This document shows positions 2,147 through 64,000 of a stretch of 64,000 bases of DNA, piece by piece. Each line of letters begins with the position of its first letter. The first letter of the stretch is position 1. Origin of the DNA: an uncultured Poribacteria bacterium (GTDB lineage Bacteria > Poribacteria > WGA-4E > WGA-3G); the NCBI GenBank assembly GCA_951812525.1, contig OX638316.1:4904608-4968607 (forward strand), written 5' to 3'. Below the pieces are notes generated by a model. That model made no database searches and was not told the origin of the DNA. It was given only the letters and a program-made list of their open reading frames with translations. The position numbers and the translations under genes are program-made.

Positions 2147-2149
2147 ATA

Positions 2150-2345
2150 GTTTATATTTGTGAATATTTTCCACCCTTTTTTCCTCATCCAACCCGGTAG
2201 GCACGGTTTTGCGGCGTACTCGACCCGACGAATGCCACACGCGCATTCGGCGTTGATTCATGCGACCTGCATTCCAACCGTGCCGGATACGAGAAAAAGG
2301 TGTCAAACTCCATATATTCTTAAAACTAAATGCCCTTATATTGGA
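2150..2345 (+). repeat. REP/MITE-like element. An AT-rich 5' flank is followed by a GGTAGG-headed hairpin (2196-2286) whose loop carries a 65-nt insertion. It is homologous to 49866-50010.
   Basis: It aligns with 49866-50010 over the 5' flank (tttatatYtgtgaatatttt...aacccggtaggcacggttt) and the 3' flank (aaccgtgccgga...attcttaaaactRaatg.ccctata). The segment 2211-2275 is present only in this copy. Confidence 0.7.
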
Positions 2346-6897: not shown

Positions 6898-6957
6898 TTA
6901 TACTCAACTACGAATCTACCAACTCTAATTCATAATTCCAACGCCCAGTTTCCAGTT

Positions 6958-7407
6958 TTATTCAGTCATTTTTTTCATCTGAAAGTGCGTGGTAGTTTCA
7001 CCAACAATTGTAAATCCCAGTCTTTGATAGAAGATGACGCCGCGGGTGTTGACTTTTAGCACTTGAAGCACTACAGGTTTCTGCCGAAGACTGGCATCAT
7101 CAAGAATACGCGCCATGCACGCCGAACCGATGCCTCTTCCTTGGTATTCAGGCAAAATATAGAGTTGATTCACCTTAAGTGTAGCACGCGTACGAGACGT
7201 TGCTAAGAAACCGACATCCGTCCCACAAAACTGAATAATGTGTAAATCTTGTGAAGCAAACCGCCTATCGTGTAGCTCCCTTTGATAACTATCATCCCAA
7301 CCCCAAACCTGTTCTACATATTCCCGGAACGCAGCCTTCTTTACGGTAAAAACGAATTCGTTGTCGCTTGCATACGCTTTGCGAATGTTTAACTCCTCCA
7401 CAGCCAT
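6958..7407 (-). CDS. GNAT family N-acetyltransferase. The start was moved to the Met at 7407, which has an AAGGAAG RBS; the track ORF extends to 7494.
   Basis: The acetyl-CoA binding motif QGRGIGSACMARIL is present. Confidence 0.65.
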   Translation of the reverse strand: MAVEELNIRKAYASDNEFVFTVKKAAFREYVEQVWGWDDSYQRELHDRRFASQDLHIIQFCGTDVGFLATSRTRATLKVNQLYILPEYQGRGIGSACMARILDDASLRQKPVVLQVLKVNTRGVIFYQRLGFTIVGETTTHFQMKKMTE

Positions 7408-19249: not shown

Positions 19250-19345
19250 AGATGCTCTTCTGTAGGACGGATTTCCGAATCCCGACGTATGCTCGCTCTC
19301 CTGTAGGACGGATTTCCGAATCCCGACGTATGCTCGCTCTTCTGT
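19250..19345 (+). repeat. Tandem repeat, about 2.3 copies of a 41-bp unit GCTCGCTCTYCTGTAGGACGGATTTCCGAATCCCGACGTAT
   Basis: It can be read directly. Related copies occur at 37905-37950 on the minus strand and at 43738-43760. Confidence 0.8.
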
Positions 19346-19480
19346 TGGTGGTTGTCAGCGGTTGGCGATTGGCAGTTGGCAATTGGCTGGAAACCGCCTT
19401 GATATTCTCACTTAGATCGTTTACAATGATATAGACTATGACACCCACTTAATTTTAAAGCTTAATGGAGATGCCGAAAT

Positions 19481-30512: not shown

Positions 30513-30537
30513 AGCGAGGTTAGGAAACCTCACCTAC
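30513..30537 (-). repeat. Instance of the REP-like hairpin family (GGTAGG head on the minus strand)
   Basis: The minus strand reads GGTAGGTGAGGTTTCCTAACCTCGC. Confidence 0.6.
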
Positions 30538-30558
30538 CGAGTAGAGAGCGTTAATTAA

Positions 30559-36615: not shown

Positions 36616-36641
36616 GGCGAGGTTGGGAAACCTCGCCTACC
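36616..36641 (-). repeat. Instance of the REP-like hairpin family
   Basis: The minus strand reads GGTAGGCGAGGTTTCCCAACCTCGCC. Confidence 0.6.
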
Positions 36642-43563: not shown

Positions 43564-43804
43564 GGTCAGTATCCTTCTTAACTAAGGTCTTCATTCATCA
43601 TTATACCATATTCTTTGGAATATCTGCCACATCTTTTGCAATGCACAAGATCATTTAGCCTTAGGTTATTGGTTATAAGTTGTTGGTTAATGGTGGTTGG
43701 CAATTGGCAGTTGGCGGAAGGAATAAATCGCGATCGGGAGATCGCTCCTACAGGAAGTCATTAGTACACAGTAGACTGTAGATAGAGATCGTTCCTACAG
43801 CAAC

Positions 43805-47300: not shown

Positions 47301-47332
47301 GGCGAGGTTGAGAAACCTCGCCTACCTTTTTT
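47301..47332 (+). terminator. Intrinsic terminator after the transporter gene. It is also a REP-family hairpin.
   Basis: It reads GGCGAGGTTGAGAAACCTCGCC-TACC-TTTTTT. Confidence 0.65.
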
Positions 47333-49865: not shown

Positions 49866-50010
49866 AGTTTATATATTTACTTTATATCTGTGAATATTTT
49901 TCGTCCTTTTTACCCATCTAACCCGGTAGGCACGGTTTCCTAACCGTGCCGGAAACAAAAAAAAAGGCGTAAAACCTAATAAATTCTTAAAACTGAATGA
50001 CCCTATAGAG
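49866..50010 (+). repeat. REP/MITE-like element between hemA and hemC, homologous to 2150-2345. Its hairpin is 49926-49952.
   Basis: It reads GGTAGG-CACGGTT-TCCTAA-CCGTGCC-GG with conserved flanks. Confidence 0.7.
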
Positions 50011-61366: not shown

Positions 61367-62797
61367 GTGGATACATACGATTTGACAATCATCGGCGGCG
61401 GAAGCGCGGGGCTCGTGCTTGCCGTGGCGGGGGCAAAGTTAGGCAAAAAAACAGCACTCGTGGAAAAATATCGCATCGGTGGAGATTGCCTCTGGACGGG
61501 ATGTGTTCCGTCCAAAGCACTCCTGAAAGCGGCGAAGGTAGCGAATTATATTCAGAACGCAGAGAAATACGGCATCGCAGCTTCATCACCTATGTCAGAC
61601 TGGCAGCGGGTGATAGGGTATGTGGAAAGCACCCAACACGCGATAGAAGAGGAGCACGACAACCCTGAACGATTCCGCGAGATAGGCGTGGATGTCATCT
61701 TCGGAAACGGGCATTTTGAATCACCCAATACCTTCGTTGTGGAAGACACTGAAAGTGGAGAGACACGTACTCTTAAAAGCAAAAAATTCGTGATCAGCAC
61801 GGGTTCCCGTCCTATTGCGCCACCTATACCCGGATTGGAATCTTGTGGCTACCTGGATAGCGAGACTGTATGGGAATTAGAGGCGTTTCCCAATCGGATG
61901 CTCGTTGTCGGTGCTGGTCCAATCGGAGTTGAACTTGGACAGGCATTTCATCGTCTCGGTGCCGATGTGACAATAGCACAACGCAGCGGACAGATCTTGA
62001 CGAAAGAAGATGCCGATGTCTCTGAACAGATACTGGATTACCTACGCGCAGATGGTCTCACGATCCGACTTAACACAAACATTGCGCAGGTTACACAGGA
62101 CCAAGAAGGCGCAAAGGTGACATTCAATAGCAGTGAAAACGGAAACACTGAACAGACATTCGATAAGATTCTAATCGCTGCGGGGCGCGCACCGAATATC
62201 GATGGTTTAGAGCTTGAACAAATCGGGGTACAGGTTGGTAGACGTGGGATTGAAGTGAATAACAAACTTCAGACGAGCGTCAAAAATATCTACGCCGCGG
62301 GTGATGTTATCGGACACTACCTGTTCACGCATGTTGCAGCATTTCAAGCACAACTGCTCATCCGAAATCTCTTCTTTCCCTTCTCCAAAACGATTAACTA
62401 TGCTGTCGTTCCGTGGACTACCTTCTGTGATCCAGAGGTCGCTCGTTGCGGTCTGACAGAGGCAGAAGCACGCGAGAAGTATGGAGATGTTGATGTGTTT
62501 ACACTCGATCAAGGGGACGTTGACAGAGCGGTCGCGGAAGGCGAGACCCAAGGCTTCACAAAAGTTATCACGAGTCGATGGAACGGAAAAATATTAGGCG
62601 TGCACGTCGTGGGAACCAATGCGGGAGAGGTGATCCATGAGTACGTTCTGGCGATGCAGACCGGAATACCTCTTCGGAAATTGAGTGGTATGATTCACGT
62701 TTATCCGACATTTTCGAGCAGTACGTGGCGTGTGGCAGGGAAATGGTTTTCGGAGAGCACGATGATTCAGACGTTACGGAAACTAATTGGGAAGTGA
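61367..62797 (+). CDS. Class I pyridine nucleotide-disulfide FAD oxidoreductase (dihydrolipoamide-dehydrogenase / mercuric-reductase-like)
   Basis: It has the FAD motif LTIIGGGSAGL, the redox disulfide GGDCLWTGCVPSK and a C-terminal dimerisation His. Confidence 0.75.
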   Translation: MDTYDLTIIGGGSAGLVLAVAGAKLGKKTALVEKYRIGGDCLWTGCVPSKALLKAAKVANYIQNAEKYGIAASSPMSDWQRVIGYVESTQHAIEEEHDNPERFREIGVDVIFGNGHFESPNTFVVEDTESGETRTLKSKKFVISTGSRPIAPPIPGLESCGYLDSETVWELEAFPNRMLVVGAGPIGVELGQAFHRLGADVTIAQRSGQILTKEDADVSEQILDYLRADGLTIRLNTNIAQVTQDQEGAKVTFNSSENGNTEQTFDKILIAAGRAPNIDGLELEQIGVQVGRRGIEVNNKLQTSVKNIYAAGDVIGHYLFTHVAAFQAQLLIRNLFFPFSKTINYAVVPWTTFCDPEVARCGLTEAEAREKYGDVDVFTLDQGDVDRAVAEGETQGFTKVITSRWNGKILGVHVVGTNAGEVIHEYVLAMQTGIPLRKLSGMIHVYPTFSSSTWRVAGKWFSESTMIQTLRKLIGK

Positions 62798-62856
62798 AAC
62801 TCAGAAGCGTGACAAACTAACAGATTGCGGTACAAGCCCGCTTCATCGAACTCACG

Positions 62857-63558
62857 TTATACGTTTAGTATTACAGCCTTAACTATTTTGCCACTGTATT
62901 TATCAGGACTGGCGAACTCTCTCAGATTCGAATTAGCAATATTCTGATTGATCTCTGAAGAGGTTTTAGATTTTAATTCCAAACCTTCGTCCGGATCATA
63001 GTGGTAATCTTCCAATGCGAGTTCCAAGAGTTCATAAGCTACGAAGAACTCGCGAAACGCTTCCTCTAACGCTTGACGCGAAGCATGTTGTCTGAGCAAA
63101 GTGACCACCCGTGGACGCACGGTAAAGAGATCTTCAGCAATAAGTGTCCAGATAAGTTCGCGAAACTCCTCTGGTGATAACTCGGAGATTTTCTTGTTAG
63201 GCATTGGATCACTTGGTAGATAGCGACTGTTCAGTCGGCGTTGCTTCCGTTCTTCAAGTGTTGTTCTCCGATTAGCGAGTATATAGTCCCGCTGTCGTCT
63301 TAGTTTTTTGGCGAGTGGTGTGTTCGATTCTAAACCATCAAGCGGGTCTTCCTCGTATTTTTCAAACCAAAAGGCGAGGCTCTCATAACCACAGAAAAAT
63401 AAGCGGAACTCTACCTCTAATTCCTCTGTTTTCTCTGCTGAATCAGGGGTGCTAAGCAATGTGATAAGGCGTCCACGCACATCAAAAATGTCATCGTCAG
63501 CAATATACTGGAGCAATTCAGCGATTTCGTCGCAAGACATATTGGCAAGTTTTTTCAC
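62857..63558 (-). CDS. Hypothetical acidic protein composed of two homologous halves
   Basis: There is an internal duplication: EIAELLQYIADDDIFDVRGRLITLL...EFRLFF matches EFRELIWTLIAEDLFTVRPRVVTLL...AFREFF. Confidence 0.4.
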   Translation of the reverse strand: MKKLANMSCDEIAELLQYIADDDIFDVRGRLITLLSTPDSAEKTEELEVEFRLFFCGYESLAFWFEKYEEDPLDGLESNTPLAKKLRRQRDYILANRRTTLEERKQRRLNSRYLPSDPMPNKKISELSPEEFRELIWTLIAEDLFTVRPRVVTLLRQHASRQALEEAFREFFVAYELLELALEDYHYDPDEGLELKSKTSSEINQNIANSNLREFASPDKYSGKIVKAVILNV

Positions 63559-63576
63559 GATTTCTCCGTTACGGTT

Positions 63577-63840
63577 GGAAATTTTAAATGTCTGCTTATT
63601 TTTATTAGGACTTACGCACTTCCCCGGTAGGTGCGGTTTCCTAACCGCACCGATTGCGTCATGTGGAAATTTTAAATGTCTGCTTGTTTTTATTAGGACT
63701 TACGCACTTCCCCGGTAGGTGCGGTTTCCTAACCGCACCGATTGCGTCATGTGGAAATTTTAAATGTCTGCTTATTTTTATTGGGACTTACGCACTTCCC
63801 CGGTAGGTGCGGTTTCCTAACCGCACCGATTGCGTCATGA
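63577..63840 (+). repeat. Three tandem direct copies of an 88-bp unit, each containing a GGTAGG-headed REP-like hairpin (CCCCGGTAGGTGCGGTTTCCTAACCGCACCG). It sits 19 bp upstream of the start of the 62857-63558 gene.
   Basis: Copies begin at 63577, 63665 and 63753 and differ by 1-3 substitutions. An inverted fragment of the unit (TGCGTAAGTCC) follows at 63861. Confidence 0.85.
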
Positions 63841-64000
63841 TAGACTTAATTCTCTGATTTTGCGTAAGTCCTGTTTATAATTCACAATAAAAAGGGTTAG
63901 AGGGAAATGCGGGAATTGTGAAACGGGATGGAAAGTACGGGATGCGATTGCGTATCTCCGATCAGTTCGAGAATCAAGTGTTCCTCCCTCTCCTGTAAAC

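Follow-up and report, generated by a model that had tools for sequence, protein, structure and literature searches.

A tandem array upstream of an antitoxin-like gene in Poribacteria probably formed by duplication across the junction of a single MITE insertion

Just upstream of a minus-strand gene in an uncultured Poribacteria bacterium, three copies of an 88-bp sequence, each with a REP-like hairpin, follow one another head-to-tail. This locus raises the question of how such an array could have formed, and of what it might mean for the gene beside it. A first-pass annotation of the window (the whole stretch of DNA that was analyzed, 64,000 nucleotides long) proposed the local amplification of a mobile, REPIN- or MITE-like element, with possible use as a contingency switch. 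Our analysis resolves this striking "perfect tandem array" into more ordinary steps, namely the insertion of a MITE and then a tandem duplication that straddles one of its junctions. We hold it to be highly probable that a single insertion was followed by such a duplication, and that recombination has since moved the array between two and three units. Coordinates of the relevant features are listed in Table 1.

Table 1. Features of the array locus, with positions in the window
Feature	Position	Strand	Basis or remark
Array units, 3 x 88 bp	63576-63663, 63664-63751, 63752-63839		Tandem Repeats Finder, repeat search, sequence
REP-like hairpin, GGTGCGGTT-TCCT-AACCGCACC	63630-63651; more copies 63718-63739, 63806-63827	+	Motif search, folding
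Local non-element flank, 30 bp	63576-63605 (unit 1); repeats 63664-63693, 63752-63781		Uniqueness, ortholog alignment
Left 58 bp of MITE, truncated copies	63606-63663; second 63694-63751	+	Comparison with 50 dispersed single copies
Complete 92-bp MITE	63782-63873	+	Full-length match to canonical element, TIRs
Right TSD, TTTAT	63874-63878		Equals 63601-63605, 63689-63693, 63777-63781
233-aa gene, duplicated domain, antitoxin-related	62857-63558	-	GTG start 63556-63558; GGAG 63564-63567
ECF sigma-factor gene, 3' end	63897-64000; stop codon 63897-63899	-	Cut by window end

The array and the element inserted at this locus

Tandem Repeats Finder, whose use had been proposed as a check, reports one strong array in the 64-kb window, at 63576-63839 (period 88, 3.0 copies, 98% matches, 0 indels, score 514). 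A separate repeat search recovered the identical three units in head-to-tail orientation. Their identity to each other is 99-100%, which bears out the first-pass figure of more than 96%. The coordinates originally assigned to the array (63577-63840) were one base off, and to call the array perfect was slightly too strong: the units are distinguished by two SNPs, both A>G, of which one is in unit 2 (63686) and the other in unit 3 (63783). The distance from the array to the GTG start codon of the adjacent gene, first counted as 19 bp, is 17 nt.

Each unit does carry the REP-like GTAG hairpin that had been ascribed to it. The 26-nt GGTAGG hairpin, GGTAGGTGCGGTTTCCTAACCGCACC, occurs exactly three times in the 64-kb window, once per unit, compared with 0.00 occurrences expected from shuffled sequences. 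It is predicted to fold into a 9-bp GC-rich stem with a 4-nt loop, and the 41-nt core has a predicted energy of -17.9 kcal/mol (z = -3.35). In the first unit, GGTA directly precedes the hairpin at 63630, and the GTAGG motif begins at 63627. The window as a whole has a GC content of 47.6% and is not HIP1-rich.

The unit is composed of two kinds of DNA. Its first 30 bp, TGGAAATTTTAAATGTCTGCTTATTTTTAT (TSD included), are local: a 32-mer covering this flank is confined to the array locus in approximately 510 kb of sampled Poribacteria DNA, and the gene-proximal end of the flank, TAAAATTTCCA, together with the next stretch, ACCGTAACGGAGAAATC, aligns with the region upstream of orthologous genes. 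The remainder, seen as truncated copies in the first two units, consists of the left TIR of a MITE, TAGGACTTACGCA, the GTAGG hairpin, and 12 nt. Judged by these alignments, the 88-bp unit is a composite of 30 bp of local flank and the left 58 bp of a 92-bp MITE, and is not itself mobile. The conserved flank of about 40 bp that was originally counted as part of the element likewise mixes the MITE terminus with local DNA. A proposed resemblance between this flank and elements at 2150 and 49866 holds for the shared CCCGGTAGG-hairpin core, but beyond the core it is marginal, with 19 of 32 positions matching at the best shift (p ~0.04 compared with shuffles).

Unit 3 extends past 63839: across this point the sequence reads ...GCGTCATG|ATAGACTTAATTCTCTGATTTTGCGTAAGTCCTG, and the continuation corresponds to the right half of the canonical element, right TIR included, with its last base at 63873. 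In the resulting complete MITE, the left TIR is at 63782-63794 (TGGGAC..., which holds the SNP) and the right TIR, TGCGTAAGTCCTG, is at 63861-63873. The inverted fragment previously noticed at about 63861 therefore exists and belongs to the element as its right TIR. TTTAT, the last 5 nt of the 30-bp flank, precedes each left TIR and serves as the left TSD.

The whole structure has one right end and one TSD pair, and it therefore reflects one insertion event. That the flanks are identical, and that there is only one right TIR and one TSD pair, rules out three independent insertions. A mobile MITE-like element is thus involved, as had been supposed, given the TIRs, the TSD, and the dispersed copies described below. 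However, the amplified 88-bp unit is not that element. Because the unit mixes local DNA with a truncated element, it was made by segmental tandem duplication and not by transposition or REPIN spread.

Several other types of structured repeat were considered and rejected. A CRISPR-like array would have spacers that differ from one another, but all units here have the same 30-bp "spacer". Neither tandem sRNA genes (NsiR1-like) nor an intrinsic terminator would fit, as the array lacks sites resembling promoters or terminators and the hairpin is not followed by a U-tract on either strand. Rfam searches gave no match at the gathering threshold in the 64-kb window, and none at E<=10 in the region 63300-64000.

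A MITE family with a REP-like core

To characterize the element, the 24-mer GGACTTACGCACTTCCCCGGTAGG was scanned against one genome per species. Matches were found at 50 loci in 17 assemblies, all of them Candidatus Poribacteria, with a single match per locus and up to 14 per genome. When the dispersed copies are aligned, conservation extends from TAGGACTTACGCA through the GTAGG hairpin to TGCGTAAGTCCTG, which is about 92 bp (90-92 bp in the basic form), and flanks are unrelated between loci. The two ends, which are kept at the termini of dispersed copies, are complementary at 12 of 13 positions, and the TIRs of the family can be written as (T/C)AGGACTTACGCA. Of 93 strand-wise calls, 57 have an exact 5-bp TSD, whereas 1.3 would be expected from shuffled pairings; the TSD of some copies is 6-7 bp. 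The 92-bp element thus combines the properties of a MITE: it has TIRs, makes a TSD, is small and non-coding, and is dispersed with unrelated flanks. A search for an autonomous partner IS, that is, for TIR pairs around a transposase-sized ORF, found none in approximately 510 kb of sampled loci.

The core of the element has the form of a REP, with a GTAG(G) head and a GC-rich imperfect palindrome, and is extragenic and multi-copy. The pattern GGTAGG-N3-GGTT-N4-AACC-N3-CC has seven matches in the 64-kb window, compared with 0.01 expected, and all are located between ORFs. Across solo copies, the hairpin stems vary with compensatory changes (TGC/GCA, CGA/TCG, CAC/GTG, TTC/GAA). The REPIN label that was first applied does not suit the element, which has one hairpin per copy, has terminal TIRs, and makes a TSD. 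A tblastn search with E. coli RayT against the window and all sampled loci (approximately 525 kb, which makes this a weak test) gave nothing below E = 0.68. By its sequence organization, the element is classed as a MITE with a REP-like core and not as a REPIN. With its TIRs, 5-bp TSD, and REP-like core, it represents a MITE family previously undescribed in Poribacteria, a phylum of uncultivated sponge symbionts; a full-text search of the literature on repeats and MITEs in this phylum yielded nothing specific.

Other repeats with related hairpins were observed in the window and in the sampled loci (L numbers). Solo REP-like hairpins of the form GGTAGG-N3-GGTTTCCnAACC-N3'-CC are present in the window at 30513-30538, 36616-36641, and 47301-47326 on the minus strand and at 49925-49950 on the plus strand. 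Their stems differ in mutually compensating ways (CGA/TCG, CAC/GTG). All are between ORFs, and three are 20-60 nt past the stop codon of a same-strand gene. A second dispersed family, approximately 140 bp in length (window 2148-2340 and 49866-50007; L047 ~6940-7060), has the CCCGGTAGG hairpin core in common with the MITE and has different arms (left ...TTTATATnTGTGAATATTTT..., right ...ATTCTTAAAACTnAATGnCCCTAT...); a clear TIR or TSD was not established from these three copies. Among the non-coding tandem repeats of the sampled loci, the majority contain GTAGG-type hairpins (for example, those in L004, L028, and at 19254 in the window). The repeat at 19254-19345 in the window consists of 2.2 copies of a 41-bp unit with a different GTAGG hairpin (CTGTAGGACGGATTTCCGAATCCCGAC), and is followed at 19361-19387 by TTGGCAA heptamer repeats, with a similar heptamer tract at 43660-43722. 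Further arrays of GTAGG- or ATAGG-type hairpins are found at L028 7820-7997 (33 bp x 5.7), L004 3420-3777 (183 bp x 2.0), and L010 4211-4399 (60 bp x 3.0).

Another observation concerns non-coding modules that reside exactly within the loop of the GTAGG hairpin. Such modules occur at 2196-2275 in the window and at loci L009, L011, L013, L016, L018-L022, L031, L032, L034-L037, L040-L043, L047, L048, and L054. The type A module, AATGTAATACGAGGAATGGA-TTT-GGTCTATTCCCAGACCAAATCC, has a net length of +42, is at times nested in itself, and takes the place of a TTY triplet in three separate hairpin families, itself included. Type B, TTGCGGCGTACTCG...GCGAnnTGCA, adds 32 nt, and type C is CCAGGGTTCCCACCCGTTACTGGGAAGGGACACC. 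Orthologous MITE copies in the genomes of different species, with flanks that are 98-100% identical, differ by clean loop indels. The clean presence/absence pairs are L040/L051 (+32 nt, type B), L013/L047 (+84 nt, corresponding to two nested 42-nt steps of type A), L022/L032 (one further 42-nt step), and L037/L015. We know of no mechanism that fits these non-coding modules of 32-45 nt. Insertion sequences that target REPs have been documented (PMC1525189), and the loop modules differ from them in their small size and lack of coding sequence. Given their presence or absence at orthologous sites, the modules may be of more interest than the array.

The adjacent gene and variation in copy number

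The array is upstream of a correctly placed gene start. A GGAG Shine-Dalgarno sequence is located 5 nt upstream of the GTG codon, and the MKKLA N-terminus is kept in orthologs, whose ATG or GTG start codon coincides with it. An ECF sigma-factor gene is located upstream in the same orientation, across a short and AT-rich spacer. The sequence of one assembly of the same species (L052) is identical to the window at the end of this gene, and the full 210-aa ORF found there matches Sigma70_r2, Sigma70_r4_2, and Sigma70_ECF.

The 233-aa protein encoded downstream is internally duplicated, and its two domain copies are 41% identical (E = 7e-15). A ParE toxin gene comes after it in relatives at 77-78% identity (L053 4697-4951, L054 4697-4951, L055 961-1215), and a match to Unstab_antitox (PF09720) was obtained with the C-terminus of a more distant homolog (P0061, 57% identity). 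The window's species lacks the ParE gene, and its version of the protein is unrelated over the C-terminal ~10%. The protein looks like an orphaned antitoxin that has been remodelled.

Orthologs without the MITE (L053, L054, L057, L058, and L064; 77-86% protein identity) have a near-consensus promoter, TTGACA-N17-GATAAT (11/12), with an upstream TG, approximately 40 nt before the start codon; L057 has the variant TTGATA-N17-GGTAAT. The homology of the window's species to these upstream regions ends at about TAAAAT. A promoter scan that detects the promoter of the relatives found zero promoter-like sites in 62700-64000. The TTGACA-N17-GATAAT promoter has been lost in the window's lineage. When the scan is relaxed, the best site is CTAATA-N16-TAAAAT (8/12), which is on the sense strand in the two proximal units and derives partly from the MITE end and the TSD. 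With the canonical promoter absent and no sigma-70-like site in the array, transcription of the 233-aa gene would most likely come from the sigma gene, by read-through, or start at this weak site carried by the units.

The canonical promoter region is also gone in another lineage of orthologs, at 83% identity (L056). In this case the same spacer contains, at 664-743, a tandem hairpin repeat of 41 bp x 2.0, ATGCCCGGTAAAGCCCACACGGGCTTCATACCGTTGATTTC. Since this hairpin repeat is different from the one in the window, the intergenic region between the sigma gene and the 233-aa gene seems to attract small repeats. The ATGCCCGGTAAAGCCCACACGGGCTTCATACCGTTGATTTC motif is also nested within type B loop inserts, for example at 2215-2255 in the window.

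A further motif, GGAAAC-N19-CGTA, is present on the sense strand of the gene in every unit and in every MITE copy, where it extends from the hairpin loop to the left TIR. ECF promoters typically have a spacing of 16-17. The motif resembles an ECF-type -35/-10 pair whose spacer is 2-3 nt too long, and the upstream gene encodes an ECF sigma factor; coincidence is possible.

Copy number could be compared in seven independent assemblies, comprising the contigs of the six members of the adjacent protein's 90% cluster and L001. Three units are present in the 5.06-Mb contig of the window itself, which is the reference for identity over the neighboring 1.5 kb, and in L060, a "ptg" long-read contig (99.5% identity to the window). 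Two units are present in the scaffolds L052 (99.5%) and L059 (99.4%), in the SPAdes contig L062 (99.3%), and in L061, a 5.02-Mb long-read chromosome (98.3%). The contig of L001, a short-read assembly (99.8%), breaks inside the array after 1.9 units. Therefore, the predicted variation in copy number across related genomes does exist: strains that are 98.3-99.8% identical have alleles of two or three units. Repeat collapse is conceivable in L052, L059, and L062, which are short-read or scaffold assemblies; L061 is long-read, and long-read assemblies back both states. A search of JGI metagenomes with GGAAATTTTAAATGTCTGCTT for further alleles gave 0 matches.

None of the seven assemblies of the window's species has a one-unit or empty-site allele, and the duplication is therefore older than about 1.7% sequence divergence. 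The presence of at least two units in all seven alleles could mean selection rather than neutrality, or simply shared ancestry. SNPs are also informative. L059 carries C@66 in both of its units, the window carries it in the middle one, and L060 and L061 carry it in their distal units. L060 also has A@60 in two units, and both three-unit alleles have C@57 in the distal one. L001 reproduces unit 1 and then the SNP-bearing unit 2 before it breaks. Because SNPs recur among the units of a given strain, the array must be genuine and continue to change; such sharing is the signature that unequal crossing-over or gene conversion would leave.

The suggestion of a contingency switch is not supported, and the array is no contingency locus in the usual sense. 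Copy number does differ among close strains, as in contingency loci, but the unit is 88 bp and not a short repeat that alters reading frame or promoter spacing. In addition, the array has no promoter-like site at the threshold of the scan, and only two states have been seen.

Origin of the array, alternative explanations, and known systems

In the history that we favor, one MITE of ~92 bp, from a Poribacteria-wide family, inserted between the ECF sigma-factor gene and the 233-aa antitoxin-like gene and duplicated TTTAT. An 88-bp segment across the left junction of element and flank would then have been duplicated in tandem; this order of events is a reconstruction from present-day sequences. 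The first duplication may have occurred by illegitimate recombination or by template switching during replication, possibly favored by stalling of the fork at the hairpin. The window sequence contains no microhomology at the novel junction, GCGTCATG|TGGAAATT, and simple slippage is therefore not demonstrated for this first step. Later shifts between two and three units presumably involve the 88-bp repeats themselves, through slippage or homologous unequal exchange.

A comparable duplication is found elsewhere in the phylum. At L032 (OZ246979.1, 3436-3637), an independent tandem duplication of 2.1 x 98 bp extends over the flank/TIR junction of a related MITE, which has the same TIR as the MITE of the array and a different interior. 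In this case, there is a 6-bp microhomology, CTCACA, at the breakpoints, and the orthologous copy in L022 is unduplicated. The L032 locus and the other GTAGG arrays are in support of what may be a general tendency to hairpin-linked tandem duplication.

If the 233-aa gene is transcribed through this region, the transcript would cross a leader with three 9-bp GC hairpins, in which the right TIR could pair with any of the three left-TIR copies. The predicted fold of this leader has an energy of -98.5 kcal/mol (z = -4.5). REPs in E. coli affect mRNA stability and translation. If the array behaves like REPs and Correia MITEs, each added unit would be expected to dampen the downstream message or lead to its processing, and not to act as an on/off switch. 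It is just as possible that the array is close to neutral.

Alternatively, the array could be a product of selection for regulation. By this account, the duplication followed the loss of the promoter and multiplied a weak outward promoter, a protein-binding site, or an RNA-processing site, so that copy number tunes or phase-varies the 233-aa gene. The canonical promoter of the relatives is indeed missing here, at least two units have been kept in all seven alleles (with L001 broken after 1.9), and copy number is polymorphic (2/3). Promoters carried on MITEs are also documented (Correia, BrickBuilt, and others). The candidate sites are less persuasive. CTAATA-N16-TAAAAT, on the sense strand of two units and formed partly by MITE end and TSD, matches at only 8 of 12 positions, which is under the threshold of the scan, and TAAAAT also occurs in a relative, downstream of the real -10. 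GGAAAC-N19-CGTA, read by eye on the sense strand of each unit downstream of an ECF sigma gene, has a spacing above that typical of ECF promoters. Moreover, there are two copy-number states only, the 88-bp period is unlike that of classical contingency loci, and the near-identical junction duplication in L032 has no obvious regulatory context. We therefore regard a selected regulatory array as unlikely.

A bolder proposal would be that the array is a selected leader tunable by copy number and, relatedly, that hairpin-centered tandem amplification is an active, enzyme-assisted route to REP clusters in Poribacteria. If this were true, the MITE end and flank would supply each unit with a weak promoter or ECF-type site (GGAAAC-N19-CGTA) and a REP hairpin, and gain or loss of 88-bp units would set the amount of an orphan antitoxin-like protein downstream of an ECF sigma factor. 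We find this distinctly unlikely.

It is also conceivable that the element drove its own amplification, by transposition or through a REP-specific enzyme of HUH/RAYT type acting at the hairpin, for example, in one-ended or rolling-circle-like events. In its GTAGG head and palindrome, the hairpin matches RAYT-associated REPs (PMC2817692, Table 1), and the distal breakpoint is 12 nt 3' of it. Pure tandem arrays of REP hairpins exist in Poribacteria (L028, 33 bp x 5.7; window 19254-19345, 41 bp x 2.2), and Bertels and Rainey suggested "a second mechanism" for ordered clusters (PMC3116915). However, each unit contains the same 30 bp of locus-specific DNA, there are one right TIR and one TSD pair, and the 88-bp unit is found at the array locus only in the ~510 kb sampled. 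The TIRs and TSD point instead to DDE-type mobilization of the whole 92-bp element, and a RAYT homolog was not found in the ~525 kb of sampled Poribacteria DNA, although that test is weak. Amplification by transposition is largely refuted, and an element-driven process of any of these kinds is highly improbable.

Finally, although the break of the short-read contig L001 within the array indicates a region that is hard to assemble, there is next to no chance that the array is an artefact of a spuriously expanded or collapsed repeat, because SNPs tell the three units apart, L001 has the same order of unit 1 and unit 2 with the same SNP, and long-read assemblies support both the three-unit state (the 5.06-Mb window contig and L060) and the two-unit state (L061).

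A single MITE insertion, with later duplication across its junction, thus remains our preferred explanation. The 2/3-copy polymorphism provides a simple strain marker, and also a natural experiment on whether REP-type hairpins in a leader modulate expression. For annotation, the lesson is that the unit boundaries given by Tandem Repeats Finder are not the boundaries of a mobile element, and that dispersed copies in other genomes are needed to locate the latter.

The closest precedent is in P. fluorescens SBW25, whose ordered REPIN clusters are described as tandemly repeated REPINs "including the flanking sequences" and have been explained by a second mechanism distinct from transposition (Bertels & Rainey 2011, PMC3116915). 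Common to both systems are head-to-tail copies of a REP-containing element plus flank, an intergenic location, and attribution to a process other than transposition. In contrast to the SBW25 clusters, the Poribacteria repeat holds only the left 58 bp of its element, the element is a MITE with TIRs, a TSD, and a single REP-like hairpin rather than a REP doublet, and the host is an uncultivated Poribacteria symbiont.

The target-site duplication of Correia elements is TA. The Poribacteria element differs from them in this respect, with a TSD of 5 bp, as well as in its TIR sequence, in having no promoter-like site that scores, and in the tandem amplification of its junction. The two are alike in being non-coding elements of ~100 bp, bounded by TIRs and flanked by a TSD, just upstream of a gene (for Neisseria, PMC10969869). 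In Correia and similar MITEs, promoters, IHF sites, and cleavage by RNase III at the TIRs of co-transcribed elements have been reviewed (PMC10969869). As with co-transcribed Correia elements, TIR duplexes and hairpins would be expected in the mRNA.

With REP/BIME sequences and their RAYTs (Nunvar 2010, PMC2817692; Ton-Hoang 2012, PMC3333891), the element has in common GTAGG followed by a GC-rich imperfect palindrome, extragenic location, multiple copies, and compensatory changes in stems. Unlike these sequences, the Poribacteria hairpin is embedded in an element with TIRs and a TSD, the alternating orientation of REPs in BIMEs is not seen in the array, and no cognate RAYT was detected in the limited ~525 kb that was sampled. 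BrickBuilt of Porphyromonas gingivalis is, like the present case, an intergenic bacterial MITE associated with a tandem repeat, or minisatellite (PMC4596501). However, the 23-nt repeat of BrickBuilt is internal and travels with the element, whereas the 88-bp repeat spans the boundary of element and flank at one locus. The junction-straddling duplication is thus of a kind already described for REPINs; the MITE family in which it occurs is new, and its phylum is under-studied.
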